Assembly: GCA_963733035.1 (NCBI GenBank)
Contig: CAVTBU010000005.1
Coordinates: 320,001-384,000, forward strand
Length of the DNA stretch: 64,000 nt
From: Pirellulales bacterium
GTDB lineage: Bacteria; Planctomycetota; Planctomycetia; Pirellulales; PALSA-1355
Reading direction: 5' to 3'
Each line of letters opens with the position of its first letter. Within the stretch, counting starts at the first letter, position 1. Below, piece after piece: positions 23,356 to 45,728 of this stretch. Under the pieces are notes generated by a model, which did not search any database, was not told the origin of the DNA, and worked only from the letters and a program-made list of their open reading frames with translations. Both the position numbers and the translations under genes were made by a program.

Positions 23356-23431
<76 letters not shown>

Positions 23432-30074: not shown

Positions 30075-30266
30075 CGGCGAGGATGTGCCCTCCTTTGATT
30101 GGCCGCCACACGGGTTGCTCTCCCGGCATTATCGCCTTCCATTAGACGCCGCCACCGCGTCCGTCTATAAAGGACCGTGCCGCGGGATGACGCGCTTCGC
30201 ACTTGTAGACACGTCGCGCAACCGCGGGTCGTGCCCCCCTGCCCTTACGGACTTGGACTTCACCTC

Positions 30267-31352
30267 ATGGAACCTCCTTCCACGCCGGCTTTGATCGTCG
30301 ATGGTGAAACGACGCTACGGAATCTCACGCGCATGGCGGAATATGGCGTGGAGCATGAAGTTGATATTCGGCCGCATACCAAGACGCACAAGTCGCGACA
30401 ATTGGCCGATCTGCAGATGGGGCTGGGAGCCGTGGGGCTCACGGCGGCAAAAGTGGGCGAGGCGGAACTCATGGCCGAGGTGGCCGACGACATCCTGCTG
30501 GCATATCCGGCCATCGACCCGACTCGAACCGCGCGCCTCGGACATCTGGCCGGACACGTGACGCTACGGGTGGCGGCCGATTCGCTGGAAGGCATCAAGC
30601 GGCTGGGCGCGGCGGCCAATCGAGCCAAAACGACCATCGGCATTCTCGTGGATCTCGATGTCGGCATGGGACGCACCGGCGTGCAAACCGCCAACGAAGC
30701 CCTCAAGCTCGCGCAATGCGTCGATGCCACGCCGGGCGTACGACTTGACGGACTGTTTTGCTATCCGGGCCACATCCAGCAGCCGCCCGACCAACAAGCC
30801 GACGCGTTAGACGCCGTTTCGCGAAAGCTCGGCAAAACTCTCGAACTCTGGGCGGCGCACGGCCTGGAAGCGCGGATTGTTTCGGGTGGATCGAGTCCGA
30901 CGGCATACCAATCGCACCTGGTGCCCGAATACACCGAGATCCGACCAGGCACGTATATCTACAACGATATGAACGGCGTGCGCGGTGGATTTTGCCGTCT
31001 GGAGGATTGTGCCGCCCGCATCTTATGCACCGTGGTTAGCACCGCCGTGCCCGGACAGGTGGTCATCGATGCAGGCACAAAGACGCTCACCAGCGACAAG
31101 TGCGGACCACTGCCCGACAGCGGTCACGGCTACATCGTCGAGTATCCCGAGGCTGTGATCAACAAGCTGACCGAGGAGCACGGGCAGGTTGACATTCGTA
31201 CGTGTGCCAGCGTGCCGAAGATCGGCGAGCGGTTGACGGTGATCCCAAACCACATCTGCCCTTGCGTCAACTTGCAGGACAGCGTCTGGTGGCGCGATGA
31301 AAACGGCGAGCTGGTGGAACTGGCGATCGACGCTCGCGGGTTGCTGGTCTAA
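30267..31352 (+). CDS. Fold-III PLP enzyme, D-threonine aldolase/DSD1 family
   Basis: TPALIVD, RPHTKTHKS, GRTGV, GGSSPT, EIRPGTY, DAGTKTL, EEHG, PNHICPCVNL. Confidence 0.9.
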   Translation: MEPPSTPALIVDGETTLRNLTRMAEYGVEHEVDIRPHTKTHKSRQLADLQMGLGAVGLTAAKVGEAELMAEVADDILLAYPAIDPTRTARLGHLAGHVTLRVAADSLEGIKRLGAAANRAKTTIGILVDLDVGMGRTGVQTANEALKLAQCVDATPGVRLDGLFCYPGHIQQPPDQQADALDAVSRKLGKTLELWAAHGLEARIVSGGSSPTAYQSHLVPEYTEIRPGTYIYNDMNGVRGGFCRLEDCAARILCTVVSTAVPGQVVIDAGTKTLTSDKCGPLPDSGHGYIVEYPEAVINKLTEEHGQVDIRTCASVPKIGERLTVIPNHICPCVNLQDSVWWRDENGELVELAIDARGLLV

Positions 31353-31401: not shown

Positions 31402-32802
31402 TCAATCGTTGGCCGCTTCTTCGGAGAGTGGTTCCGGCAGAAAGAAACACGCGACGCTTCCGACGAAGAACACGAAGAAGGCCACTGCAGCCGCCGCGTT
31501 GGCGATTTGCATGGGGGGCGATCCGCCTGGCATATATTTGCTAAGCAAGAGCGTGATGGCGGCGAAAGAGGTTCCAATCATTCGACCACCGATGTTCGCG
31601 GCAAATCCCTCGCCCGTGCCACGCAAGTGGACGGGATAGGCGCGCGGCAAGTAGTTACCCAGGAAGCTAAACTGCCCGACGACGAACAAGCCGGCGAGGA
31701 ACGCCCCGACGGTCAGAGCGTTGAGACTGTGCTTGGGAGCCAGCACGAAGATCAACGGCACAATGATCAATCCCGGCACCTGGAATACCCGCAACAGCGA
31801 CCGCCGGCTAACGATTCGCACGGCAAGGATGGCGAGCAGAACACGGCCAACGAGGCCTCCGACCTCCTGCACTTCGCCGATAAAGGCAGACGTTTCCTGT
31901 TCGTGCTGTTTTTGCGCGGGGACCGGCATCTCGGAGATCTTGGCCTTGAGGTCGGGCACGCCAGGCACGATCTGCCGAATCTGCTGGATGGCACCGAACG
32001 CGCCGCCGTAGGCACAGGCGAAGATAATGGTCGAGACAATCGTCGTACGGCGCAACTCTGGGCTGAACAGTTCGGCGAAACTCGGCCGACGGAGTTGTCC
32101 GCTGGCACGCTTTTTGGCCCAGATGGGCGACTCCGGCAGGAAAGGCCGAATGATGATCAGCGGCAGCGCCGGGATCAAACCCGACATTAGAGTATAGCGC
32201 CAGGGTGCATTGCCGTTGTGGATCTCACCCATAAAGCTCAGAAAGCCGGGGAATTGGATCGTCGGCCAATCAGCGGCAAACTTCGCGGCCAGCCCATAGG
32301 CACCGGCAACCAGGAAGCCGCCAAGCGATGAGAATGCCTGCGTGTAGCCCAGCACGTTCTCGCGCTGCCGTGGGTCGGGGAACAGCTCGGCCAACCAGGC
32401 CACGGCGGCCACGAACTCGACGCAAACGCCTACGAAGGTCAGGCAGCGGAGCACTAGCAACATCTGAATAGACGTGGAATAGCCAGCCGCGAACGCCGAG
32501 AAAGCATAGATCAAGATGCTCCAGGTGAGCACGCGCCGCCGACCTAAGCGGTCAGTCAGGTAGCCGCCCAACAGTCCGAAGATGCCGCCAGCAACGGCCG
32601 GCACGTAGAACAATAGGGATCCCCAATAACGAAAGCCGTCGCTGCCTGGCTTGAAGTCGGTCAGTTCGACGATCAAGTCCTTGATAATGAACTGCATCAT
32701 CAGCAGTTCGTAGATGTCGAAGGCAAAGCCGATGGCCGCCAGCGAAACGATTAACCATTGCGTTGCGGTCAGCCTGTTGGAGCCAAGGGCCGGTGAGCTC
32801 AT
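31402..32802 (-). CDS. MFS transporter
   Basis: GFAFDIYE, GYLTDRLGRRRVL, AELFP, YPVHLRGTG; about 12 TM helices. Confidence 0.9.
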   Translation of the reverse strand: MSSPALGSNRLTATQWLIVSLAAIGFAFDIYELLMMQFIIKDLIVELTDFKPGSDGFRYWGSLLFYVPAVAGGIFGLLGGYLTDRLGRRRVLTWSILIYAFSAFAAGYSTSIQMLLVLRCLTFVGVCVEFVAAVAWLAELFPDPRQRENVLGYTQAFSSLGGFLVAGAYGLAAKFAADWPTIQFPGFLSFMGEIHNGNAPWRYTLMSGLIPALPLIIIRPFLPESPIWAKKRASGQLRRPSFAELFSPELRRTTIVSTIIFACAYGGAFGAIQQIRQIVPGVPDLKAKISEMPVPAQKQHEQETSAFIGEVQEVGGLVGRVLLAILAVRIVSRRSLLRVFQVPGLIIVPLIFVLAPKHSLNALTVGAFLAGLFVVGQFSFLGNYLPRAYPVHLRGTGEGFAANIGGRMIGTSFAAITLLLSKYMPGGSPPMQIANAAAAVAFFVFFVGSVACFFLPEPLSEEAAND

Positions 32803-33017
32803 GAAATGCCCTTCGTGGGTTTGCTTAGCGCGGGTGGAACGAGCGAAAGGTGGGAGCGACGACTGTGGGGGCATCCGTTCACGCGAGTCGTAGCCTCGCA
32901 TGATAGTGAAACGGGTCGGCCGCTGGCAAGCAGCCGTGCCAAACGCTTCGATTGCGGCCCCCGAAGCAGATACTTCGCATGCGAAGTAAATCCGTTGAAA
33001 ATCAGGACTTGGCTCGC

Positions 33018-33046
33018 TTGCTTGACTTGCGTACCAATGGTATAAG
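33018..33046 (+). promoter_or_regulatory. Sigma-70-type promoter of the kamA cluster
   Basis: TTGCTT-17 bp-TATAAG with TG extended -10. Confidence 0.55.
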
Positions 33047-33131
33047 CACGCCACAGTTCGCACGCCGAATTCGGATGCTCCGAGCGCGCGTTGCCGATGG
33101 ATGGCACTCTTGCTGGAGGGATTCGCTCAAC

Positions 33132-34559
33132 ATGAACCGATCGGAAACTGCGTCCATTGCAGTGCCCGCGGGCACCGCCACGCCGGACGACTTCGAGGAG
33201 CCTCCTGGTAGTCCTCGCCGGCACCCGAAATGGACCCTCGTCCCTGATGCGCAATGGGACGACTGGCGATGGCAGATGCAAAACGCCATTCGCACAACCT
33301 CTCAATTGGCCGAATTCTATTCTTTCGGCCCCCAGGAACTTGCCGCTCTGGAAGACCTGGAACAGAAGTACAAACTGGCGATTCCGCCGTACTACTTTTC
33401 GCTGATCGACCCGTTGGACCCGGCCGACCCAATCGGATTGCAAGCGCTGCCCTCATGGCGCGAACAATCAAGCACGGCCGGCGTGGAGCTGGAAGATCCG
33501 CTGGAGGAGGACAAGGACTCGCCCGTGCCGGGCCTGACGCATCGGTATCCCGATCGCGTGTTGCTGGTCACGACACACGTCTGCACGATGTATTGCCGTT
33601 TTTGCACGCGCAAGCGAGTCACGATGGACCGCGACGGTTGGGATGCTCCCAGCCACAACGACGAGCGGATGATCGCCTACATTCGCGACCACCGACAGAT
33701 TCGCGACGTGGTCGTTTCCGGCGGCGATCCCCTCTCGCTACCGCCCGCCCGACTACGATGGTTTGTCAGCGAATTGGCGGCCATCGATCACGTCGACGTG
33801 ATTCGCATCGGCACGCGGGTGCCGGTGACACTGCCGCAGCGACTGTTCGATCCGGAATTGATCGCGCTGCTCCGCAATGCCGGCAAGGTCTGGATCCAAA
33901 CGCACTTCAATCACCCTCGAGAAATCACACCGGCCTCGGCCAGCGCGGTTCGCAACCTGATAAACGCGGGCATGCCAGTGAGTAATCATGCGGTGCTGCT
34001 CAAGGGCGTGAACGACTCGGTCGACACGATGCGACAGCTCGTGCGCGGGCTGCTGCGGATCAAGGTGCGGCCCTACTACTTGTTCCATTGCGATCCGGTG
34101 ACGGGTGCCGGGCATTTTCGCACGCCAGTCTGGAAAGGTCTCGAGATCATCGAAGGGTTGCGGGGGCACGTTTCGGGGCTGGCCGTTCCGACCTATGTCG
34201 TCGACGGCATGCATGGCGCCGGCAAGATTCCGCTGATGCCGAACTACCTGGTGTCGGCCTCGGAGAATGCCGTCGTGCTGCGCAACTACGAGGGCCTGCT
34301 GTTTCGCTACGCTCCGGAAGATCGTCCCGAAAACGCGACCGCGGGTTACGCCTCGATCGGCGTCAGTTCGCTGCTCAGTGGCACACGTTCGGCGTTGTTC
34401 CCCGACGGCACTCCGCGATTGGAACGCCGTCAGCAACAGGCGTCGACTCCCACGTGCGAATCGGGAGAACCCGACGTGATCCAGCTTAGCGGTTACCAAG
34501 CCGGGGAAATGCGGGACGACTCACAAGACCCCTGGGCACGGTTGCCGAAGGCCAGGTGA
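33132..34559 (+). CDS. kamA: KamA family radical SAM/PLP aminomutase (lysine 2,3-aminomutase-like)
   Basis: WDDWRWQ, DPLEED..SPVPGLTHRYPDR, CTMYCRFCTRKR, SGGDPL, RIGTRVPV, THFNHPRE, PYYLFHCD, GAGKIP. Confidence 0.93.
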   Translation: MNRSETASIAVPAGTATPDDFEEPPGSPRRHPKWTLVPDAQWDDWRWQMQNAIRTTSQLAEFYSFGPQELAALEDLEQKYKLAIPPYYFSLIDPLDPADPIGLQALPSWREQSSTAGVELEDPLEEDKDSPVPGLTHRYPDRVLLVTTHVCTMYCRFCTRKRVTMDRDGWDAPSHNDERMIAYIRDHRQIRDVVVSGGDPLSLPPARLRWFVSELAAIDHVDVIRIGTRVPVTLPQRLFDPELIALLRNAGKVWIQTHFNHPREITPASASAVRNLINAGMPVSNHAVLLKGVNDSVDTMRQLVRGLLRIKVRPYYLFHCDPVTGAGHFRTPVWKGLEIIEGLRGHVSGLAVPTYVVDGMHGAGKIPLMPNYLVSASENAVVLRNYEGLLFRYAPEDRPENATAGYASIGVSSLLSGTRSALFPDGTPRLERRQQQASTPTCESGEPDVIQLSGYQAGEMRDDSQDPWARLPKAR

Positions 34560-34624
34560 GCCGCGGCAAGCAATTGCACCTGGGTTTTGTTTCCCCCCCA
34601 TCACCTCTTGTAGAGGAACGGCGC

Positions 34625-35686
34625 GTGAGAATTGGTTTGACTTTTAACGTCCGACGGGCCGAGCGCCCGTCGGACGTTTCGAGAGCAGGCTTTCTGCCTC
34701 TTCCCGGCGACGATCAAGAAGAGGAATTCGATTCGCCGGAAACGATTGCAGCGATTGCCGAGGTGCTCTCAAGCCTGGGGCACGAAGTCGAATTATTGGG
34801 AAACTGCGAGACGCTGCTCGAGCGGCTGCTCAACGGACCACGGCCGGACCTGGTCTGGAACATCGCCGAAGGCCAGGGTGGCGGCCGCTGTCGAGAAGCT
34901 CAGGTGCCGGCCGTACTCGAGATGCTCGGCATTCCGTACACCGGTTCCGATCCGCTCACGCTGTCCGCGACACTCGACAAGGATTGTGCCAAGCGATTGG
35001 TGTCCAGCGTAAACGTGCCGACCCCGCGTTGGTTCTTATATGACGGAGCCGCCGAATCGGTGTCCGTCGAGGCAAGCGCACTTGCCTTTCCCGTGTTCGT
35101 CAAACCGGCGTACGAAGGTTCGAGCAAGGGGATTCTCAACCGCAGTGTTCTTCACGATGTCGACGAACTGCAAGCAGCCCTCGAGCAGCTCCACGAAGTC
35201 TACCGACAGCCCGTGCTCGTCGAGGAGTTCATCGACGGCGACGAACTAACGGTCGGCGTCGTCGGCAACGAGGCTCCCGAAGTGCTGGGCATCATGCGGA
35301 TCCTTCCCCGCTTGAAATCGAGCCAGCCGTTCGTTTACGGTCTGGAGGTCAAGCGAGACTGGCAACGGCTGGCGAGCTACGAGTGCCCAGCCCGCCTGGC
35401 CCCCAAAGACATCGAGGCGGTAAACCGCGCGGCGCTTTCCGCGTGGCGCGTGCTGGGCTGCCGCGACGTGGCACGATTCGACTTCCGGCTGCGCGACGGC
35501 GTGCCCTATTTTCTGGAAACCAATCCCCTACCGGGTCTGTCTCCCACGTCTGGAGACCTGGTGTTGCTGGCCCGGGAGATTGGCGTCGAGCACGCCGCGC
35601 TCGTCGCCAAGATTCTGCAGGCCACGTGCGACCGGTTGGCGCATACGGACGCGCGACCGCACGCGACCAAGGTGTTGGCCCGCTAA
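34625..35686 (+). CDS. D-Ala-D-Ala ligase-like ATP-grasp protein 1
   Basis: GAGGA RBS plus GTG; NIAEG, GIPYTGSD, LDK, FPVFVKPAYEGSSKG, VEEFIDG, RDVARFDFR, LETNPLPG. Confidence 0.88.
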   Translation: MRIGLTFNVRRAERPSDVSRAGFLPLPGDDQEEEFDSPETIAAIAEVLSSLGHEVELLGNCETLLERLLNGPRPDLVWNIAEGQGGGRCREAQVPAVLEMLGIPYTGSDPLTLSATLDKDCAKRLVSSVNVPTPRWFLYDGAAESVSVEASALAFPVFVKPAYEGSSKGILNRSVLHDVDELQAALEQLHEVYRQPVLVEEFIDGDELTVGVVGNEAPEVLGIMRILPRLKSSQPFVYGLEVKRDWQRLASYECPARLAPKDIEAVNRAALSAWRVLGCRDVARFDFRLRDGVPYFLETNPLPGLSPTSGDLVLLAREIGVEHAALVAKILQATCDRLAHTDARPHATKVLAR

Positions 35687-35809
35687 AACTGCTGGCGTCG
35701 ACACCCCGCGCTGGTGTAGCATGTCTTGGCCCACAACGGCTACGTCATCGGCAACCTAGTCTGCCAGCTCTTACCGCCCACGAAGCGGTGGAACCAAGGG
35801 AGATTCGAC

Positions 35810-37801
35810 ATGGCAACGAACGGCAAAGCCAAGAAAAAGATCCAACGGACACTCGATGCACGGCCCGACACGTTGGACTTTCGCGACCAGATGTATGTGG
35901 CGACACTCGTCGAGGTACCGCCGCAGATCTCGCTGTCGAAGTACAAGAGTTTGAAAGTTCCCATTCTCGACCAGGGAACTGAGGGGGCCTGCACCGGTTT
36001 TGGATTGGCCACGGTGGCTAACTACCTGTTGCGTCATCGCCGCGTGTCTCCAGGCAACGCGCAGGTGAGTCCGCGAATGCTCTATGAAATGGCTCGGCGC
36101 TACGATGAGTGGCCGGGCGAAGCATACGAAGGTTCAAGCGCCCGCGGAGCCATGAAGGGCTGGCACAAGCATGGCGTATGCTCAGAGAAGATATGGCCGT
36201 ATCAGGCGTCCGATCGCGGGGAACTTTCGGCCCTGCGAGCCAAAGACGCGACGCGACGACCTTTGGGGGCCTATTTCCGCGTGAACCACAAAGACCTGGT
36301 TGGCATGCATGCCGCCCTGGCGGAGGTGGGCGTGCTCTATGCCACGGCTGTTGTTCACGACGGTTGGGACCGCGTTGGGAAAAACGGCAAGATAGCATTC
36401 AGCGACAAAGTGCTTGGCGGCCACGCATTTGCCATCGTGGCTTACGACCAGCGTGGGTTCTGGCTGCAGAATTCCTGGGGCAAGTCCTGGGGCGCGCAAG
36501 GCTTCGGGCACTTGACGTACGACGACTGGCTGCAAAACGGCACCGACATTTGGGTGGCGCGGTTGGGCGTGCCGGTCACAATCACCTCTGCCGGCGGCGT
36601 CGCGCTCACACATTCCGGCCAGCACCGCACAAGTGCCTACACGTTCGAAGAATTGCGACCGCATATCGTGAGCGTGGGCAATGACGGTTTGCCGAGAAAC
36701 GAAGGCACGTATGCCACGACGACAGCCCGTATCAGCGCGATCTTCGCCGATGACTTTCCGCGAATTACCAAAAGTTGGAAAAAGAAGCGGCTGCTGCTCT
36801 ATGCGCATGGGGGGCTCACCGACGAGGAGTCGGCCGTCCAACGGGTGGCCGACTTTCGCACCTCGCTACTCGAAGCCGAAATCTATCCCGTTTCCTTCAT
36901 TTGGAAAACCGATTACTGGACGACACTCAAGAACGTGCTGGAAGATGCCCTGCACCGTCGTCGACCGGAAGGCCGACTGATCGATGCTGCCAAGGATTTC
37001 ATGCTCGACCGACTCGACGATGCCCTGGAGATTCTCGCCCGTCGGCTGACAGGCAAGCTCGAATGGGATGAAATGAAGGAGAACGCGCTGCTTGCCACGA
37101 CGGGCCTCGGGGGTGCCGCCAGGCTGGTTGCACAAGAGGTGGCGAAGCTGAATTCGGTCGAATTGCACCTCGTCGGTCACAGCGCCGGCAGCATTTTGCA
37201 CGCGCCGCTGGCGCAACTGTTGGCAACGCCCGGCAAGATCGCCTCCGGCCCGATGAAGGGCGAACAGGGCCACGGCCTGAAAATTGCCTCATGCACGATG
37301 TGGGCGCCGGCCTGTACGGTTTCACTCTTTAACGACACCTATCGCCCGTTGATTGGCGGCGGACAACTCCAGCGGTTTGCCTTGTTCGGGCTGACGGATC
37401 AGGCCGAACAGGACGACGACTGTGCCGGCATTTATCACAAGTCGCTCCTGTATCTGGTCTCCAATGCATTCGAGCAGTTTGAACGGCTGCCGTTCGGTTC
37501 CTCGCAAGGAGAGCCGATACTGGGCATGCAGCGGTTCATCGATTCCGGACTGCGAAAACTATTGAAGCAAGCGCCGCACCAGTGGGTCTTGGCACCAAAC
37601 GCCGAACCGGTCGGCTCGGTCGCCGCCTCGGGCTCGCGGTCGCACGGAGGGTTCGACGATGACCGGGCCACGCTACGTGCCACACTGGCCTTCATCCTGA
37701 ACAAGGCCGTCTCGCACAACGGCACACACCTCGATCACACACTCTCGGGCCTGCGATCGATTCGAGGGCGGATCAACGACGCGTTGGTGTCGCTGCGCTG
37801 A
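35810..37801 (+). CDS. C1 (papain-like) cysteine peptidase fused to an alpha/beta-hydrolase domain
   Basis: DQGTEGACTGF (Gln/Cys), GGHAF, QNSWG; C-terminal LYAHGGL, LVGHSAGS, SHGGFDDD. Confidence 0.88.
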   Translation: MATNGKAKKKIQRTLDARPDTLDFRDQMYVATLVEVPPQISLSKYKSLKVPILDQGTEGACTGFGLATVANYLLRHRRVSPGNAQVSPRMLYEMARRYDEWPGEAYEGSSARGAMKGWHKHGVCSEKIWPYQASDRGELSALRAKDATRRPLGAYFRVNHKDLVGMHAALAEVGVLYATAVVHDGWDRVGKNGKIAFSDKVLGGHAFAIVAYDQRGFWLQNSWGKSWGAQGFGHLTYDDWLQNGTDIWVARLGVPVTITSAGGVALTHSGQHRTSAYTFEELRPHIVSVGNDGLPRNEGTYATTTARISAIFADDFPRITKSWKKKRLLLYAHGGLTDEESAVQRVADFRTSLLEAEIYPVSFIWKTDYWTTLKNVLEDALHRRRPEGRLIDAAKDFMLDRLDDALEILARRLTGKLEWDEMKENALLATTGLGGAARLVAQEVAKLNSVELHLVGHSAGSILHAPLAQLLATPGKIASGPMKGEQGHGLKIASCTMWAPACTVSLFNDTYRPLIGGGQLQRFALFGLTDQAEQDDDCAGIYHKSLLYLVSNAFEQFERLPFGSSQGEPILGMQRFIDSGLRKLLKQAPHQWVLAPNAEPVGSVAASGSRSHGGFDDDRATLRATLAFILNKAVSHNGTHLDHTLSGLRSIRGRINDALVSLR

Positions 37802-37887
37802 GAGCAATGGGGCGGGCTTCGCGAACGATAGGAGATTGGCTACGATGACGCTCGTCCAATGGGCCACGGCACAGGGTCGTTCGCGGC

Positions 37888-38916
37888 GTGAAAGTCATTC
37901 TCCTCTATAACGAACCGTCGTTGGCGGCCGACGATCCGGACGTGGAATCGGAGGCCGGGGTGCTGGAATCCGTGGACGCGGTCGATGCTGCCCTGGCCTC
38001 GCACGGCCATCGGACGCATCGGGTCGGACTGTCGGCCGAGCCTGCGCTGGCTGCCGAAACCATCGTGCGGCTTGCCGAGGCCGACGTGGTTTTCAATCTG
38101 TTCGAAGGATTTGGAGGCGTCGGCCACGGCGAAGCGGAGATTGCCGGACTGGCCGAGCTTTGCGGGCACGCCATCACCGGTTCGCCAGCGGAATGCCTGG
38201 CGCTGGTGCGCGACAAAGCCCGAACGAAATGGCTGTTAGCGGGTGGGGGCGTGTCGACGGCTGAATTCCGGCTTGTCGTGCCTGGCGACTTATTCGATCG
38301 CGAGGGGCTGCAACAGTTGCTCGAACTCGGGCCAGCAATCGTCAAACCAGCTCAAGAGGACGCCAGTCTGGGTATTGGGCCCCAGAGTGTCGTGAGTGAA
38401 CTAGCGCGGCTCGAAGAGCAGCTCGGTGTGATTCATCGCCGCTACGGACCGGCACTCGTCGAGCGGTTCATCGTGGGTCGCGAGTTCAACGTGTCGGTGC
38501 TCGCACTTCCCGAACCGGAGCTGCTGCCGCTGGCGGAGATTGAATTTGGGCCCGCGTTCGGAGAGGACCGGCAAATCGTCACGTACGCGGCCAAATGGGA
38601 ATTGGCGAGCCAGGACTTTTCGCACACGCCGGTGCGTTGTCCGGCGGACGTCGCACCGGAGCTGGCATCCGAGATCGGCCAAGTGGCCTTGGCGGCATTT
38701 CGGCTGACCGGTTGCCGCGACTACGCTCGCGTCGACTTGCGCGTCGATGCGGAAGGGAGGCCGCATGTACTGGAAGTCAACGCGAATCCCGACATCAGCC
38801 CCACAGCAGGTTTTGCCAGGGCCCTGCGAGCCGCCGAAATCGAGTACGATACGTTCATTGACCGACTGGTGAGAACGACGCATGCCAACCGCGCAGAAAT
38901 TCGAGCCCGCCGATGA
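37888..38916 (+). CDS. D-Ala-D-Ala ligase-like ATP-grasp protein 2
   Basis: VFNLFEG, ITGS, RDK, IVKPAQEDASLG, VERFIVGREF, TYAAKW, RDYARVDLR, LEVNANPD. Confidence 0.88.
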   Translation: MKVILLYNEPSLAADDPDVESEAGVLESVDAVDAALASHGHRTHRVGLSAEPALAAETIVRLAEADVVFNLFEGFGGVGHGEAEIAGLAELCGHAITGSPAECLALVRDKARTKWLLAGGGVSTAEFRLVVPGDLFDREGLQQLLELGPAIVKPAQEDASLGIGPQSVVSELARLEEQLGVIHRRYGPALVERFIVGREFNVSVLALPEPELLPLAEIEFGPAFGEDRQIVTYAAKWELASQDFSHTPVRCPADVAPELASEIGQVALAAFRLTGCRDYARVDLRVDAEGRPHVLEVNANPDISPTAGFARALRAAEIEYDTFIDRLVRTTHANRAEIRARR

Positions 38917-38971
38917 ACGCCCGGCCGCGACCGCCTCGAAACCACGTACTCGCCCGAGGAGGCTTCGGCGC

Positions 38972-39742
38972 ATGATTCACGTGCTAATCTGGGGCTTGGT
39001 TGTGTGGGTTGCTATCGCTTACCTGATACTTCCGGCGCTGTGGCGGCACTACGAACATCATCCGGATCTGGCCGTTGCGCCAAAGACCACCGAGACAAGC
39101 ACGGACATTCCCGGCGATCCACTCAACGTCGCCTTGATCGGCAGCAAGAGCGAAGTGATTCGGGCATTTCTCGACGCTGGTTGGTATCCGGCCGACCCGA
39201 TCACGCTAAAGACTTCGCTGGAAATCGCCGAACGGGTGTTGGTCGACAGGCCTTACCCCAAGGCCCCCGTAAGCAGCCTGTATCTATTTGGCCGCAAGCA
39301 GGACTTGGCTTTCGAGCGACCGGCCACCAAAAGCCCCAAGCAGCGCGAGCACGTGCGATTTTGGTTGTGGAAGGGACACGAGGAACAGAACCGGCCGATT
39401 TGGCTCGGCGCGGCCACGTTCGATAAGAGCGTGGGGCTCAGCCACTACACAGGACAAATCACGCATCACATTGCGCCAGACATCGACGACGAGCGCGATC
39501 GGCTGATCGCGGACCTGGGCAAGGCGGGGCAGTTGGTGCGCTCGTCGCAAGTGACCGGCATCGGCCCGACACTCAACGGTCGCAACGGCGGCGGCGATCG
39601 CTACTTTACCGACGGCGAAGTGGATGTCGCCGTCCTTTCGCCCGACAACGCTAAACAACAGGCGCCTCCCGAGCAGTTGCCCAACCCGCCGGCAGTGAAG
39701 CTGAAGAACCGGATTTGGGGATGGATTCGGCCCTGGCTCTAG
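38972..39742 (+). CDS. LssY C-terminal domain protein
   Basis: GAGGAGG RBS; PGDPLNVAL, AGW, APVSSLYLFGRKQDLAF, REHVRFW, GAATFD, ITHHIAPDIDDERD, YFTDG. Confidence 0.85.
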   Translation: MIHVLIWGLVVWVAIAYLILPALWRHYEHHPDLAVAPKTTETSTDIPGDPLNVALIGSKSEVIRAFLDAGWYPADPITLKTSLEIAERVLVDRPYPKAPVSSLYLFGRKQDLAFERPATKSPKQREHVRFWLWKGHEEQNRPIWLGAATFDKSVGLSHYTGQITHHIAPDIDDERDRLIADLGKAGQLVRSSQVTGIGPTLNGRNGGGDRYFTDGEVDVAVLSPDNAKQQAPPEQLPNPPAVKLKNRIWGWIRPWL

Positions 39743-39784
39743 CCGCGTACGATCGTTCGGTACATGGCGGCACGCGGGATTTGC

Positions 39785-41152
39785 TCAACCATCGACGCGC
39801 CGATATTGCCCCGAGTTCTTTTCCGAAAGCGTGCGCAGGAATTCGTCGGTGGGGCTGCCGGGAAATCCGGGAGCAATGCCGATCGTGTAGATGCTGATGC
39901 GGCGGACGCGATTCACCGTGGTGATGGCCCGGATGATGTCGACCGGAGCCAAAATCTTGCCGCTGGTCGGAGCACCATCGGAGAGAAAGTAGATTGCCTC
40001 GGTGTCATATGTCAGCGCGGTCTCCAACGCGTTGTAAGAGGCCGTGTTACCCTCTGGCGATTGGCGCTCGACGTAGATCACTGCCGCCTTCTTGTTTGTC
40101 GCGTTGGCCGGCATGAGCTTTTGCTGCCAGCGATCGACGCTGCCGTTGAACACCACGATGCCGAAGTGGGCGTAGTCTGGTAACCCTTGGATTGCCCGGA
40201 TCAACTCGCGTTTGGCCGCCAGCATGCGACCACCTTGCATGCTGCCGGAAATATCGAGCACGAAGACAAGTCGTTCGGCAAACAGGGGAATACCGTAGTA
40301 CTGCCCCGCCTCGCTGTCGAGTTCGTCGGCCCGCGTGACTTTCACGGTGAGTTGGGAGGGAACCGTAGCGGTGTGCGCCGAAGCGGTTTCCCGACGCTCG
40401 GCCAACCGCCACTTTTGCCAGGCGTCGACGTTCAGACCAAATGATTGTCCGGTCGCTCTCATCAGGTAGCGGACGGCGTCGGCCTTGGCTTCGCCACCGA
40501 CGATCCCAAGCATGCCAATCAGCGGATCGAGCGATTCCTCGGACGGAGTTTTGGTAAGCGCTTGAACAACGGCCCGGCGAATACCGAAGTGCGCCGCAAA
40601 CAACTTGGCGTTCGACATTCGCGCCAGAGGCCTGACGTCGGACGCCGTGCCGTGCGAACCCAATTCGTCGGCCAGCGCGACAAGCAGTTCGGGACCTTGG
40701 GGCGAGCTGGCCAGTTGTTCGTCCATGAATTGCTGAGCTTGCACTTGCGCCAGGGGCAAGTCCGAGGCCAAAAGGGCCGCCAGCGCCGGCAGCACCATCG
40801 GTGAGCCATTACGTTTTTTAAGGCTCGCCTGAGCCGCCGCCAATAGCGCATCGCACACTTCCTGCTCGTCGTTCATCTTGTGCAGCGCTTCGTAAGCTGC
40901 CGCGCGGACGCTGTCGTCCACGTCGACGAAACAGCTATGCACCAACCGAGCCGATTCCGCCACCCGATACTTTTCGAGCGACTTGAGGGCGTCGATTCGC
41001 TGCTCTACCTTGTTGCTATGCAGTTGCCGACGCAGCTTCGGTTGCATCTCGTCAAACTGCTCGTACACGCTTTGGGCGAGCGACGACTGCGATGCAAATA
41101 GCAATCCGGCGGCGGTCAGCACGTGCGCGAGAGTGCGCGCGATCTTTGACAT
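39785..41152 (-). CDS. Exported HEAT-repeat + VWA domain protein
   Basis: Signal peptide; HEAT repeats; MIDAS FVLDISGSM, GNT, YFLSDGAP, IYTIGI. Confidence 0.88.
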   Translation of the reverse strand: MSKIARTLAHVLTAAGLLFASQSSLAQSVYEQFDEMQPKLRRQLHSNKVEQRIDALKSLEKYRVAESARLVHSCFVDVDDSVRAAAYEALHKMNDEQEVCDALLAAAQASLKKRNGSPMVLPALAALLASDLPLAQVQAQQFMDEQLASSPQGPELLVALADELGSHGTASDVRPLARMSNAKLFAAHFGIRRAVVQALTKTPSEESLDPLIGMLGIVGGEAKADAVRYLMRATGQSFGLNVDAWQKWRLAERRETASAHTATVPSQLTVKVTRADELDSEAGQYYGIPLFAERLVFVLDISGSMQGGRMLAAKRELIRAIQGLPDYAHFGIVVFNGSVDRWQQKLMPANATNKKAAVIYVERQSPEGNTASYNALETALTYDTEAIYFLSDGAPTSGKILAPVDIIRAITTVNRVRRISIYTIGIAPGFPGSPTDEFLRTLSEKNSGQYRRVDG

Positions 41153-41338
41153 GCGGGACACCTCCTCTGACCCACCGACCGGCTGGACTCATCCAAGACG
41201 CACCATACGTCGGGGGCAACATCAATTGTCCTGCCTGATGCCGCGGTCTGTCAAGCAAGCACTCCGCGGTTGAGGGCATCCCGGGGAGACCACCGTGCGA
41301 TCGATCCGCGGTATTTCGTGCCGATCTCGTCGGCCAGA

Positions 41339-43385
41339 TCAAGCGACCACGTCGGTGATCTCCGTCGTCGATGGCGCCGCCTGCTGGCGACGGCTCATCT
41401 GCCGCCACAGTTGGCGAAGTTGGTCGCTTGTACTCTGCGGCAGCCGGCCACGAGCGTAGGCGGCCCGGGAGTAAAGCTCGGCTAGATTGCGGGCGTCGGT
41501 GGCGATTTCGCGATTCAGGCGGCCGACGTCGCGGGCCAGTTCGTGCGGAGTTTGATCGGCGTCGCGCTGGCAGCCGTGCTCGCGCGACCAGGCTTCGAAG
41601 GCCTCGAAGCTGTAGCGGACCAGTTCCTCCGGGGCCAGGCCAGATGCCGCGCCGCTGGCAAACGGATCGGCAAAGCTCGCAAACGGCGGCGGCGGAACGC
41701 GAATGTCGAGCACGGCGTCCTCGGCTACACCGTAATCGCGCTTGCCGCCCCACAGCGTCCGCCACCAGTTACGAAGCTCGGTGAGAAAATTGCGGATTGC
41801 CCGCAGAACTTCGTGCCAATAGCGCCACAAGGCGAGCAGCACTGCCAGGATAAACAGACCATAGAAGATGTATTTTGCAATCGTCATCAGCGGACTTAGC
41901 GGCGCCTCGAAAGACGGGATGTCCATTGGCTCGGAAGCTTGACTTTCAGCGTCCGCACTCGGTTCGGCCTGCTGACTCTGTTCGCCTTTCGGCTTGTTCT
42001 CATAGGGGGCCGCCAATTCCTTTTGCGCCTCTCGATACTTCTTCATGTTCCGCACAAATTCAGACTCGCGCGGAGTGTCTGTTTCTTCTGGCTGGCTGTT
42101 TTGCTCGGAAGGCGACTGTTGCTCGTTCTGAGCGGCCTGGCTGTCTGCGCCCTGTGCGGACTTACCAGACGGGCCGGACGACGGTTTGGACTGAGATGGC
42201 CGCGATTGCTGTTTGTCTCCTTGGCCTTGCTTTTCCGAAGATTGCCCGCTCGATTGATCGCTAGATTGCCGCTTGCCCGGCTGTTCACCTTGTCCGGAGC
42301 CCTCGCCGGGCGAGTCACCGGGCGAGTCGCCGCTTGCCTTGCCGGCCGACTGGCCGCCAGGTTGATGGCCAGTACCTTCCGGGGGATGATCGCCGGCTTG
42401 GAGTTCATTTTCTTTTTCTGCCGCCGGGCCTTGCTGATCGTCATGCGTGCCGTTTTTTTTGGAGGGGGCAAAGCGAGACGCTTGCTGATCTGGCGAGCCG
42501 ACGTTGAACGGCAGTTTCGAAATCGCGTATTCCGCGCTCGGCCGCGGCAGCAGCGCCGCCGTCACGATCAACACAGCGACGATGGCGGTGCCGGTCGCAA
42601 GCCAGAGATTGGCCATCATCGTCGGCATTTCGATACGGCGCTGGCGCAGATAGCGCCGCAGGCCGAGGAAGCTGGTCGTGAGTAGCAGTCCCAATCCGCT
42701 GGCTACGTAGACACACAACAGTAAAAAGACGTAGCGACGTCCGCCGGTGTCCGACGCGGGAATCAGCCATTGTCCCAGGCCAAAGATCGGCAGAGCCGCC
42801 AGTGAAAAATACACCACCCAAACGCCCGGCGCGTGCGGCCGTCGCTGATGCTCGACGTAGCGCTGCCAAAAGCTCGCGGGAACTTGCCGCGTAGTCGTGC
42901 CGGCCAGGCGCTCTTGGTCTGCAACCGCGTTTCGCTCGTCAGCCGGCCTCTCCAACCCGACGACCTGCATCAATCCTTCGCCAGATGAATCTTCCGCGTC
43001 GTCGACTACCGTGCAATCCCAGGTCAATTGATGGGCGCACCACCAGACGATTCCGATCACGGTGAAATTGATGATCCAACTGTACGGATCGACCCACGTG
43101 CCCTGGTATTCCATGAATCGGTTGGCGGCGATGCCGACCAGGATGGCCAAGACCGCGCCAAACGGTGCCGCCCGCTCGAATCCCTGTTCGATCGAGATCC
43201 GGCCGATCAGGACGGCGGCAAACACGAAGCAGGCCATCACGAAGTGCAATCGTTCTTGAAATTGCCCCTGGTAAAACACGCGTAGCAGAAAGAACATCAA
43301 GCTGCCGACCAGCGCCATGATCGAGCGCCGGGCTGATGGCGATCACGACGTAGTCGGCCAGCGTTTGATGGAGGCGGCGAGGCAT
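41339..43385 (-). CDS. Membrane protein with low-complexity linker and C-terminal DUF4129; frameshift near 43322
   Basis: MPRRLHQTLADYVVIAISPAL then IMALVGSL in another frame; several TMs; G/S/Q/P-rich linker; RDADQTPHELA...ELYSRAAYA. Confidence 0.8.
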
Positions 43386-43431
43386 ATTAACAGGATGCAG
43401 CCAGAAGGCTGGCAAGTGAAACAACACTTCC

Positions 43432-44772
43432 CTATTGATAAATCGATTGCGGGATGTCGGGGGCCGACTGCAGGACATGGGCCTGGCAGACGCTGCTGAC
43501 GCTCGTTTCGTCGCGGAGGTGGCGCGCGTCGATCTGCTCTGCCAGCAGCTTACCAGCCGCTGCGGCGTACTCGCGATCTTCGTAGATGCTGACCAGCGCC
43601 GTCACGGCAAAACCTCGTCGCCGGAGGTTGCCCAGCGCCACGGCGGTTTCGTCGCTGACGCTTGTCAGAATGGCAACCACGGTTGCATCGCGCGGCAGGC
43701 GCGGGGCGGTCTCCATGACCAGTTGCGCCAGTGTCAGGCCGTCGGTCAACTCGGCCCGCGCGAGCGTTTCGAGAATTCGCATGAGTTGTTCCGGGCCCCG
43801 GCGCGTCTCGACGACGAGCGGTTGCAGCCGGTCGCTGGCGTCGCGCATGCTAGCGGCACGCATGGCGGCGTCGCGGGTGCGAATGTCAAAGTCCCAGCCT
43901 TCCTGGCGAATGCGGTCGGCGGCGTCGCGGGCGTTGGTCACCAGCCCCACCTGCTGGCCCATTTGAAACACGGCGTTGGCCAATGATGCGGCGGCCGTGA
44001 CCGCCAATTCCGATCGCATCGGTTCGTGCCGCGCTTCGAATGAATCCCGATGAAAATCGAGCACGACGGTAATGCCGGCGACCGTCGAGGGCTCGTAGAT
44101 CTTGCTGTGTAGCTCGCCGGTCCGCGCGGTTGCGCGCCAATGTATGCGGTTCAGTGGATCGCCCGATTCGTAGCGCCGCACGCCGGCCATGCGCGTGGGA
44201 TCCTCGAACAGGCGATAGCTCATTTTCACTTCGCCGATCGGCCGCCGCGAAGCCAGATCGAATCCGGCCAGCGGCTGCACCTGTGGATAGACGAGCAGAA
44301 AATGCGGCTCGGTGGCCACGCGGTAGCGGCGATGCAGACCGAACACGTCTCCCGTCTCGAGCACCAGGGGACCAATCTGGTAATAGCCGCGGCGGTTGCA
44401 CTGCAGTTGGTAGTAGACGGTCTTGCGACCACGGCGGCCAAACATGGCCAGATTTAGTCGTTTGCCGCTAGGACGCAGACTAGGCGGGTCATAGACAAGC
44501 GAGTCGCGCGGCAGCAGATCTTCGGCCAAGACCCAGGCAATCGGCAGCGCTCCGCGATTCTCGATGTTGATGACCACGGCCACGCTTTCGCCGACATAGG
44601 CGGCCAATCGATTGCACTCCCGCGTGGCCGAAAGATTCTCGGACCAGGTGCGGGCCAAAAAGCGGCTGACCAGCATCACGCCTAGGAGCGTGTACATGGC
44701 ATAGGCCAACAGCCCCAGGTTGAACGCCAGGGCCACGACCAGCAACGACGTTGCTCCCAGGAACCATTTCAT
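43432..44772 (-). CDS. DUF58 domain protein
   Basis: RRGYYQIGPL, LLVYP, GVRRYESGDPLNRIHWRATARTG. Confidence 0.92.
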   Translation of the reverse strand: MKWFLGATSLLVVALAFNLGLLAYAMYTLLGVMLVSRFLARTWSENLSATRECNRLAAYVGESVAVVINIENRGALPIAWVLAEDLLPRDSLVYDPPSLRPSGKRLNLAMFGRRGRKTVYYQLQCNRRGYYQIGPLVLETGDVFGLHRRYRVATEPHFLLVYPQVQPLAGFDLASRRPIGEVKMSYRLFEDPTRMAGVRRYESGDPLNRIHWRATARTGELHSKIYEPSTVAGITVVLDFHRDSFEARHEPMRSELAVTAAASLANAVFQMGQQVGLVTNARDAADRIRQEGWDFDIRTRDAAMRAASMRDASDRLQPLVVETRRGPEQLMRILETLARAELTDGLTLAQLVMETAPRLPRDATVVAILTSVSDETAVALGNLRRRGFAVTALVSIYEDREYAAAAGKLLAEQIDARHLRDETSVSSVCQAHVLQSAPDIPQSIYQ

Positions 44773-45728
44773 GACGCGCGGGCTTCGGCGGCCATCGTGG
44801 GAACGGGAATTTCGCTCAAAATCTCCTCGACGATCGAGGCGCTGGTCACTTTGCGCAGGCGGCTTTCGGGCCGCACGATCAGTCGGTGCGTGAGCACCGC
44901 CGGAGCAACGCGTTTCACGTCGTCGGGCAGCACGAAGTTGCGCCCCAAAATCGCGGCCATCGCCTGCCCGGTGCGGAACAAGGCGAGCGACGCACGGGGA
45001 CTGCCACCAAGGCTTAACTCCTCGTGCGTGCGGGTTTCGTGCACGATCTGCATCAGGTAGCGGCGGACCTTTTCGTCGACGTGCACCTCGCGAACGGCGC
45101 GTTGGCAGGCGACCAGGTCGGCCGCCGAGACGACCGGCTCGAGCTTGTCGAGCGGATGGCCGTGCTCGAGCATGTCGAGCATTTTCAGCTCCTGATCCAT
45201 GGTCGGGTAGCCGAGGCTGAAACGGACCAAAAAGCGGTCAAGCTGCGCCTCGGGAAGCGGGAAAGTACCTTCGTGATCGACCGGGTTCTGCGTGCCAATG
45301 ACCAGGAATGGCTGGTCGAGCGTGTGCGTGATGCCGTCGACCGAAACGCGGCCTTCGGCCATCGCCTCAAGCAGCGCGGCTTGCGTACGCGGAGTGGCGC
45401 GATTGATTTCGTCAGCCAAGACGATCTGGGCAAAAATCGGTCCAGCACGGAACTCGAACTCCGTCGATTTGGGATTGAATACGCTCGCGCCTGTAACATC
45501 GGTCGGGAGCAGGTCGGGCGTGCACTGGATGCGCTTGAACGAACAGCCGACGCTGGCCGAGAGGGCCCGGGCAAGCATGGTCTTGGCCACGCCCGGCACG
45601 TCTTCGAGCAGGATGTGCCCTTCACAAAACCAACTCACCAGCGAGAGCACAATCTGCGAACGCTTGCCGACGATGACGTTCTCGACATTGCCGATGATGC
45701 GCTTGGCTGTCGTGGCAACTTCCGCCAT
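44769..45728 (-). CDS. MoxR family AAA+ ATPase
   Basis: GHILLEDVPGVAKT, RIQCTPDLLPTD, LADEINRATPRTQ, GTFPLPEAQLDRF. Confidence 0.96.
   Translation of the reverse strand: MAEVATTAKRIIGNVENVIVGKRSQIVLSLVSWFCEGHILLEDVPGVAKTMLARALSASVGCSFKRIQCTPDLLPTDVTGASVFNPKSTEFEFRAGPIFAQIVLADEINRATPRTQAALLEAMAEGRVSVDGITHTLDQPFLVIGTQNPVDHEGTFPLPEAQLDRFLVRFSLGYPTMDQELKMLDMLEHGHPLDKLEPVVSAADLVACQRAVREVHVDEKVRRYLMQIVHETRTHEELSLGGSPRASLALFRTGQAMAAILGRNFVLPDDVKRVAPAVLTHRLIVRPESRLRKVTSASIVEEILSEIPVPTMAAEARAS

Follow-up and report, generated by a model that had tools for sequence, protein, structure and literature searches.

We describe a three-gene cassette in which the gene for a radical S-adenosylmethionine (radical-SAM) lysine 2,3-aminomutase, KamA, is followed by genes for two different ATP-grasp ligases, AG1 and AG2, that resemble D-alanine-D-alanine ligase (Ddl). 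It was examined in a Pirellulales bacterium (assembly GCA_963733035.1, here genome G000), in a 64-kb stretch of contig 5 (CAVTBU010000005.1, positions 320001-384000). This whole stretch is called the window, and coordinates below are positions within it. A preliminary description of the window, made from the sequence alone, had read five neighboring genes as one system for the synthesis and turnover of a beta-amino-acid peptide. Comparison with related loci shows that the conserved unit is the cassette kamA-AG1-AG2, rather than all five genes. We propose, with a probability of about 0.6, that the cassette builds a small, sometimes N-acetylated beta-lysine amide through two ATP-dependent ligations. 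The cassette genes and the two genes that had been joined to them are as follows.

33132-34559, + strand: KamA, radical-SAM lysine 2,3-aminomutase, 475 amino acids (aa), with Pfam domains Radical_SAM and LAM_C
34556-35686, + strand: AG1, Ddl-like ATP-grasp ligase, 376 aa from the GTG at 34556, Dala_Dala_lig_C at 118.8 bits
35726-37801, + strand: C1H, Peptidase_C1 (37.6 bits, residues 77-264) with an alpha/beta-hydrolase-like C-terminal domain
37888-38916, + strand: AG2, Ddl-like ATP-grasp ligase, 342 aa, Dala_Dala_lig_C at 90.0 bits
38882-39742, + strand: LssY_C-domain protein, 286 aa, LssY_C (PF14067) at 222.6 bits against a cut-off of 25

Conservation and spread of kamA-AG1-AG2

Open reading frames (ORFs) and searches with Pfam and NCBIfam models confirm that the five genes are co-oriented on the + strand and carry the domains named for them. 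As one conserved unit the five do not hold up, because only kamA, AG1 and AG2 are conserved together. The survey behind this statement covers the best 80 of 384 confirmed AG1 relatives in species-representative genomes, with AG1 identity of 46-73%. The loci come from Planctomycetota (labeled Pirellulales, Gemmatales, Isosphaeraceae and Phycisphaera), from nine Dehalococcoidia/Chloroflexi metagenome-assembled genomes (MAGs) and from one Armatimonadia MAG. A same-strand KamA gene occurs upstream of AG1 at 62 of the 69 loci where 1500 nt or more of sequence are available, within 700 nt at 57 of them. AG2 occurs downstream of AG1 at 69 of the 76 loci with room, within 400 nt at 68. The linkage of kamA with two ATP-grasp genes, on which the preliminary description had staked its reading, is therefore strongly conserved.

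The cassette is accessory and patchy in its distribution, as an AG1-like gene (E <=1e-60) is present in 24 of 301 evenly sampled Planctomycetota genomes, about 8%, and in 19 of 191 high-quality genomes. The arrangements in three additional, distant Planctomycetota genomes are KamA-AG1-AG2-GNAT (L117; GNAT is an acetyltransferase family), KamA-AG1-AG2, and KamA with a two-module ATP-grasp frame. No KamA-AG1 fusion was seen in 64 adjacent pairs. Five genomes with a non-adjacent KamA gene were searched, and four carry a cassette-type KamA elsewhere, at 65-69% identity; the neighbors of the unlinked genes in these four genomes were not informative. The fifth genome (G347 contig 28, L115/L116) keeps AG1-AG2, and its sole cassette-type KamA has several in-frame stops, which may reflect pathway decay or an assembly error. 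Matches of the window in sequencing runs are to soil-metagenome DNA runs only, and in small shares (<=0.22).

Predicted activities of KamA and the two ligases

KamA passes the family model TIGR00238 with 305.9 bits against a cut-off of 199.2. Its best equivalog model is that of AblA, TIGR03820, yet the score stays below the cut-off (462.5 against 525.4), as does the score for the EpmB equivalog (231.5 against 369.3). Neither the glutamate-specific nor the arginine-specific aminomutase model of NCBIfam is passed. KamA matches the lysine 2,3-aminomutase of C. subterminale (2A5H) with E 1.1e-124. In the alignment, C151, C155 and C158 form the CxxxCxxC cluster motif, K365 is the lysine that holds pyridoxal phosphate (PLP; K337 of 2A5H), and D321 and D358 fall on Asp293 and Asp330, the residues that we take to bind the epsilon-ammonium group of lysine. 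Of 58 cassette KamAs, all keep the cysteine triad and 57 keep both aspartates and the PLP lysine. Because the equivalents of D293, D330 and K337 are conserved, KamA is assigned to the lysine type, and conversion of free L-lysine to beta-lysine is predicted with good support.

The preliminary description was correct that no efp or EpmA, AblB or lysine-fermentation gene is adjacent. A separate EpmB (387.7 bits against 369.3) adjoins efp on contig 6 of the genome, and the AblB model TIGR03827 finds no match in this genome, which is 92% complete. The D-lysine 5,6-aminomutase model PF09043 gave no match in the genome either, but its control gave none as well, so this negative carries no weight. Since elongation factor P (EF-P) is served by an EpmB of its own and AblB was not found, the two ligases are the sole linked candidate users of beta-lysine here.

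Both ligases score below the cut-offs of models that define Ddl. Against NF002378 (cut-off 243) AG1 earns 167.5 bits and AG2 119.7, and against TIGR01205 (cut-off 245.65) the scores are 144.8 and 111.2. The canonical Ddl of the same genome, encoded beside murB, earns 290.3 bits. AG1 and AG2 are paralogs of each other with roughly 30-35% identity. An alternative form of AG1 in a public protein collection is 353 aa long, from a GTG at 34625. A third Ddl-like paralog, AG3 (L003:976-2106, on contig 5 of G000 at about 1.80 Mb), earns 124.7 bits against 243; its gene follows one for a 322-aa Peptidase_Mx-domain protein and precedes a response-regulator/PAS kinase, and the protein clusters with the AG2 clade.

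A tree of the ligases was built by a quick maximum-likelihood search on 59 rows, with long branches and two canonical Ddl sequences as outgroup. By the SH-like approximate likelihood-ratio test (SH-aLRT), the AG1 clade has support of 99, the clade of AG2 plus AG3 has 96, and the split of both from the two Ddl sequences has 99. The AG1 and AG2 subtrees share the same three groups, Dehalococcoidia, Pirellulales-type and Gemmatales-type, which fits co-inheritance.

Active-site residues were mapped on Escherichia coli DdlB numbering for 79 AG1 and 68 AG2 sequences, with an N-terminal alignment less certain than the C-terminal one. The residues for ATP, Mg and catalysis (K97, K144, K215, R255, D257, E270 and N272) are kept in 78-79 of 79 AG1 and in 64-68 of 68 AG2 sequences, which confirms the ATP/Mg motifs reported earlier for both proteins. 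The substrate site differs. In DdlB, the triad Glu15-Ser150-Tyr216 is what we take to be the first D-Ala site, with the Glu15/Ser150 pair holding the free amine of the donor. For AG1, 78 of 79 sequences align a Glu to E15 and all 79 keep Ser150; position 216 is W, Y or F, and His63 is replaced by Glu in 79 of 79. AG2 has lost all three residues of the triad: E15 has become S, A or Q, S150 is Ala in 59 of 68, and Y216 is Trp in 68 of 68. Further changes in AG2 are Y210 to Val or Leu, S281 to Ala (55 of 68), His63 to Glu (68 of 68), and Asp or Glu in the Gly276 column (65 of 68). The canonical triad is thus found intact in neither family, with AG1 varying at 216. The absence of the GGxSxE motif, claimed earlier for both ligases, holds for AG2, with its S, A or Q at the Glu15 column; in AG1 the Glu is aligned, in an EEFDS context instead of GGxSxE.

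The extra acidic residues in both ligase sites would suit a cationic substrate such as beta-lysine, and AG2, without the Glu15/Ser150 pair, would suit an N-blocked or peptide donor. That AG1 keeps the pocket for a free-amine donor and AG2 has lost it suggests sequential ligation, AG1 first and then AG2.

Taken together, the scores of the hidden Markov models, the separate clades and the changed substrate sites set the two ligases apart from canonical Ddl and Van enzymes, in agreement with the preliminary description. Public records name thousands of AG1/AG2-family proteins 'D-alanine-D-alanine ligase', ATP-grasp or 'hypothetical'; for these two families the Ddl name is almost certainly wrong. 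In the ESM Atlas, AG2 falls with clusters from several phyla that were automatically named as Ddl family, and these serve as leads only.

An alternative is that the ligases are wall enzymes after all, either variant D-Ala-D-X ligases or a means to add beta-lysine to peptidoglycan or an envelope polymer. Ddl is the closest known family (matches to Ddl structures in PDB have E 5e-27 and weaker), AG1 keeps the equivalents of Glu15, Ser150 and Arg255, and a D-amino-acid-type PLP enzyme (BhcC/DSD1-like) is encoded at 30177-31352; a gene cluster equated with it by position only recurs in 13 loci. The canonical Ddl beside murB in the same genome argues otherwise, as does the lack of recurrent Mur, Fem or transpeptidase genes near the cassette. 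Five Dehalococcoidia carriers of the cassette, each with AG1-AG2, yielded no murB (0/5), no murG (0/5) and no Ddl above cut-off (0/5). Because these carriers are apparently wall-less, the modification of an envelope polymer that had been offered as one role for the ligases is unlikely, and to wall enzymes in general we assign hardly any probability.

A different proposal, RimK- or LysX-like modification of a protein or carrier peptide by the two ligases, is very unlikely. The ATP-grasp enzymes do include protein-modifying members, and AG2 has a weak match to the TTL family, at 17.4 bits below the cut-off of 20.1. Both ligases, however, are of Ddl type, neither RimK nor graspetide type, and among ORFs of 90 aa or more the 80 loci share no conserved candidate for a small acidic carrier or a precursor. 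The GNAT and transporter neighbors described below fit small-molecule metabolism better.

The preliminary description had further suggested that the ligases might act as a heterodimer or in sequence. A complex of AG1 and AG2 was modeled in three runs, with each ligase entered as a 27-sequence alignment. The interface score ipSAE was 0.84 in the three runs against 0.00 for the best control, a level that 116 of 157 solved complexes attain, as do 2 of 215 mismatched pairs. The runs share at least 72% of contacts, partner pLDDT (predicted local distance difference test) is at least 83, and the modeled contact uses N-terminal and central regions. Ddl homodimer structures have been solved, so the good model may mirror likeness to, or memory of, those homodimers. 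AG1 and AG2 probably act together, perhaps in a heterodimer. In another genome (G277 contig 9, L119:2256-4313) a 686-aa open frame with two ATP-grasp modules is located directly 3' of a cassette-type KamA gene.

Other genes at the locus

C1H, which separates AG1 from AG2 in this genome, had been taken for a peptidase that matures or recycles the product. It is instead an insertion peculiar to this lineage, derived from a solitary gene that has been widely transferred, and stands outside the cassette. C1H appears at 0 of the 80 related loci. In three genomes of the same genus, AG1 (70-73% identity) abuts AG2 with no space for a 2-kb gene, and these genomes have no full-length C1H, with weak C1-domain matches elsewhere only. 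A genome of the same family and another genus (G007) has a split C1H homolog on a contig other than that of its AG1-AG2 pair. The C1H family includes at least 7585 of 8000 scored candidates at E <=1e-5. The best 119 relatives listed are 644-703 aa long, show 59-65% identity to C1H and come from several phyla; those named include Jettenia, Brocadia, Gimesia, Nitrospira, Spirosoma, Ferruginibacter, Sulfuricella and a cyanobacterium. Such identity across phyla points to horizontal spread, and on the two plasmid records examined C1H homologs are solitary in unrelated contexts. No clear target-site duplication flanks C1H. Only short imperfect repeats at chance level occur, for example one of 21 nt with 81% identity (35575-35595 and 37831-37851).

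As read from a TTG start, C1H has 691 aa; a likelier start is the ATG at 35810, giving 663 aa, the form found in a public collection. The peptidase domain matches PF00112 with 37.6 bits against a cut-off of 20.7. It resembles the papain-like peptidase xylellain (3OIS; E 1.1e-13), and the catalytic Cys (GACTGF), His (GGHAFA) and Asn (QNSWG) align. C1H differs from xylellain-type peptidases by its additional C-terminal domain of about 390 residues, for which no Pfam match is found at E <=5. The model of this domain has pLDDT 72.9. Its best Foldseek match has E 2.4e-3, with none at or below 1e-3, and the top rows are nearly all alpha/beta hydrolases. The serine of the GHSAG motif, S486, is invariant in 24 of 24 sequences, and Asp563, Asp564 and His640 are invariant as well. 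One C1H homolog carries PF05990. No signal peptide was seen in C1H by eye.

The LssY_C gene, whose start overlaps the 3' end of AG2 by 35 nt, follows AG2 in just 4 of the 80 loci (L009, L015, L016 and L021, the closest relatives). It is a lineage-specific accessory, and its inclusion in the system is not supported. The protein has one N-terminal transmembrane helix and a model with pLDDT 87.9; no clear match to a solved fold was found, the best Foldseek E being 0.084 and the best VIA Z 5.2. The LssY_C family comprises 2818 representative clusters. Invariant residues of the domain are Arg155, Arg159, Trp161, Asp181, His195 and Arg205. By PADLOC, AG1, AG2, C1H and LssY match no defense family at E <=0.01.

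A five-gene system, in which C1H would mature or recycle the product and LssY would take part, might be read from the co-orientation, the short gaps, the overlap of LssY with AG2, and the LssY_C genes behind AG2 in the four closest loci. The absence of C1H from all 80 loci and, in full length, from the same-genus genomes speaks against it, as do the G007 copy on a different contig, the relatives of roughly 60% identity that occur in Nitrospira, Spirosoma, Sulfuricella, cyanobacteria and anammox bacteria, and the solitary copies on two plasmid records. LssY_C is likewise absent at 76 of 80 loci. For C1H the five-gene reading is largely refuted, and as a whole it is extremely improbable.

Two further features lie 5' of the cassette.

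31402-32805, - strand: major facilitator superfamily (MFS) transporter, divergent; the ORF listing extends to 33063
33022-33046, + strand: weak promoter-like element, TTGACT, 13-nt spacer, TGGTATAAG, found by eye and a lead only

A single sigma-70-like promoter ahead of the genes, reported earlier, was not recovered. A scan for the sigma-70 consensus across 32800-40000 gave no + strand site, and one - strand site against 1.3 expected by chance. The element found by eye consists of TTGACT at 33022-33027 and TGGTATAAG at 33038-33046, and its spacer has just 13 nt. The ATG of KamA has GGAGG 12 nt 5' of it. Across the whole window Rfam models identify a tRNA only (23356-23428); neither kamA nor the MFS gene is preceded by a riboswitch.

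The start of the MFS protein is placed near 32805 because alignments of its orthologs begin at about residue 87. Among NCBIfam models it matches only MFS families, all below cut-off. Orthologs of this MFS type are found at 14-15 of the 80 loci; by tblastn the count is 14 of 80, and that of an APC amino-acid permease 12 of 80. Where the nearest gene upstream of KamA was tested, it encodes an MFS protein at 16 of 51 loci and an APC permease at 8 of 51, together 24 of 51. GNAT acetyltransferase genes are present at 19 of the 80 loci. They lie 11-39 nt 3' of AG2 in all nine Dehalococcoidia/Chloroflexi loci. In five Planctomycetota loci the GNAT is in the AG2 reading frame; that of L061 was verified as a 516-aa ORF with both domains. 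In L065 the GNAT gene is adjacent, in L048 it follows AG1, and in three loci it is about 3.6-3.8 kb away. The linked GNATs belong to a family of about 1000 proteins with generic annotation only; among solved structures their closest relative is 2R7H (E 2.2e-33), which bears the deposited name 'putative D-alanine N-acetyltransferase'. Neither the recurrent GNAT nor the divergent transporter of the relatives had appeared in the preliminary description.

These neighbors bear on the main rival to our proposal, a secreted cationic product such as an epsilon-linked oligo-beta-lysine or a conjugate, antimicrobial or metal-binding, which the MFS protein would export and the GNAT would protect against or cap. 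A precedent is found in streptothricins, whose beta-lysine chains are epsilon-linked and which a GNAT detoxifies by acetylating the beta-amino group. The MFS gene as upstream neighbor (16/51) and a second MFS gene downstream in L015, L016 and L021 are consistent with export. The patchy spread (24/301 Planctomycetota, with Dehalococcoidia and Armatimonadia) fits transfer between lineages, and the extra acidic residues of the ligase sites fit polycationic substrates. Gemmatales-type loci, however, have the importer-like APC permease (8/51 by Pfam, 12/80 by tblastn). The cassette sits among housekeeping genes rather than in an island, and genes for immunity, regulation or further tailoring do not recur beside it. 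We regard a secreted product as unlikely.

Other neighbors are occasional. Glutamate dehydrogenase occurs at 5 loci, and an M20 deacylase, considered as a recurrent partner, was dropped because it appears only in L075 and L066. Beyond the MFS gene, the PLP enzyme at 30177-31352 has an alanine-racemase-type fold and is most like BhcC (179.5 bits against 690); the gene cluster that recurs in 13 related loci is equated with it by position only. Known BhcC-like relatives act on D-amino acids, and a functional link of this enzyme to the Ddl-like ligases may exist. Downstream, on the - strand, 39785-45728 encodes vWA/HEAT, DUF4129 and DUF58 proteins and a further ORF, and resembles MoxR-type vWA operons. 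A vWA gene adjoins the cassette in 11 related loci. The nearest relative of the linked GNATs in this genome (L110, contig 6 of G000, at about 776 kb) is divergent to an OPT oligopeptide transporter.

A predicted beta-lysine amide pathway

In the pathway that we propose, KamA would convert free L-lysine to beta-lysine, and AG1 and AG2 would each catalyze a single amide ligation, with an acyl-phosphate as intermediate. The product would be a small beta-lysine-containing amide, a di- or tripeptide-like compound. The GNAT found beside AG2 or in its frame, at about one-fifth of loci, would N-acetylate this product, and lysine uptake or product transport would fall to the divergent MFS protein or amino-acid permease. 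The likeliest role, judged from N-epsilon-acetyl-beta-lysine and N-acetylglutaminylglutamine amide (NAGGN) as analogs, would be that of a nitrogen-rich cytoplasmic small molecule, for example a stress protectant or compatible solute. In this genome C1H, a solitary gene acquired horizontally, has come to lie between AG1 and AG2, and in the closest relatives LssY_C was added downstream. The earlier claim that the ligases build a beta-lysine-containing product stands as to the linkage and the non-Ddl character of the ligases; their substrate and their product are what we infer.

Several observations weigh against the pathway as proposed. The adjacency of kamA is the sole link that ties beta-lysine to the ligases, and it is lacking at 7 of 69 loci (L025, L033, L062, L064, L066, L067 and L071). 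AG2 is missing despite room in 7 of 76 (L025, L026, L028, L037, L042, L048 and L074), and in this genome the C1H insertion separates it from AG1 by 2.2 kb. In the quick tree with its two Ddl outgroup sequences, the monophyly of AG2 without AG3 has support of 49. The complex model does not discriminate a heterodimer from homodimers, no AG1-AG2 fusion is present in 70 adjacent pairs, and the two-module frame in L119 joins to AG1 a first module that is an AG1-like paralog rather than a clear AG2. Neither this window nor any of 61 of the 80 loci has a GNAT gene; the nearest relative in this genome has 36% identity (E 1.3e-19) and is located elsewhere, and the AblB model TIGR03827 matches none of three linked GNATs from relatives. 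As to the Dehalococcoidia, completeness is not given for the five genomes, and the absence of murB and murG is unproven.

A wider interpretation is that the cassette, whether or not a GNAT is present, represents a third fate of bacterial beta-lysine, beside the lysylation of EF-P and N-epsilon-acetyl-beta-lysine. A heteromeric, Ddl-derived ligase pair would then make a new class of beta-lysine-containing, in some cases N-acetylated, di- or tripeptide, and the pathway would have passed by transfer between Planctomycetota, Dehalococcoidia and further phyla. The annotation of genes as 'D-Ala-D-Ala ligase' in apparently wall-less Dehalococcoidia would thereby be explained. We put this forward tentatively, at somewhat less than even odds.

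Four known systems offer comparisons. AblA and AblB form the N-epsilon-acetyl-beta-lysine pathway of methanogens, with yodP-kamA as the counterpart in Bacillus subtilis. The cassette shares with it a KamA-family mutase with the lysine Asp pair, AblA as best equivalog, and a GNAT linked at 19 of 80 loci. It differs in that KamA is below the AblA cut-off, the linked GNATs do not match the AblB model, and the constant partners are two ATP-grasp ligases, which are absent from Abl. With DdlA, DdlB and the Van ligases, AG1 and AG2 share the ATP-grasp fold, the domain Dala_Dala_lig_C and the residues for ATP, Mg and phosphate transfer; low scores, clades of their own, changed substrate residues and the lack of mur context distinguish them.

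Ngg is a bifunctional GNAT and ATP-grasp enzyme that makes the N-acetylated dipeptide osmolyte NAGGN. In principle the cassette would work alike, with an ATP-grasp amide ligase coupled, and sometimes fused, to a GNAT that acetylates a small product derived from amino acids. In the L061 fusion, by contrast, the order is reversed, with ATP-grasp N-terminal and GNAT C-terminal, and the cassette has two ligases and a radical-SAM mutase that would supply a beta-amino acid. The best 25 of 41 NCBIfam rows for the L061 fusion are all Ddl or Van families, and no Ngg-specific model was searched by name. The synthesis of mycosporine-like amino acids uses MysC and the Ddl-like MysD, ATP-grasp ligases encoded in tandem. 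They too are two different ATP-grasp ligases side by side, one of them Ddl-derived, and add amino acids sequentially to a small scaffold. The MysC/MysD scaffold is unrelated, however; no 4-deoxygadusol genes occur here, and both cassette ligases are Ddl-derived. Among the titles and abstracts searched, no description of a KamA plus ATP-grasp cassette was found.

The locus is a caution against reading operons from a single genome, as its most striking gene, C1H, is a passenger. The three- to four-gene pathway proposed here is testable and would lead to a new beta-amino-acid metabolite in phyla with little-known chemistry, uncultured Dehalococcoidia among them. If correct, it would extend the substrates of Ddl-fold enzymes by a new class, relevant to peptide-ligase engineering. 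Should the product prove to be a solute or a polycation, the cassette would represent a new use of radical-SAM aminomutase chemistry.

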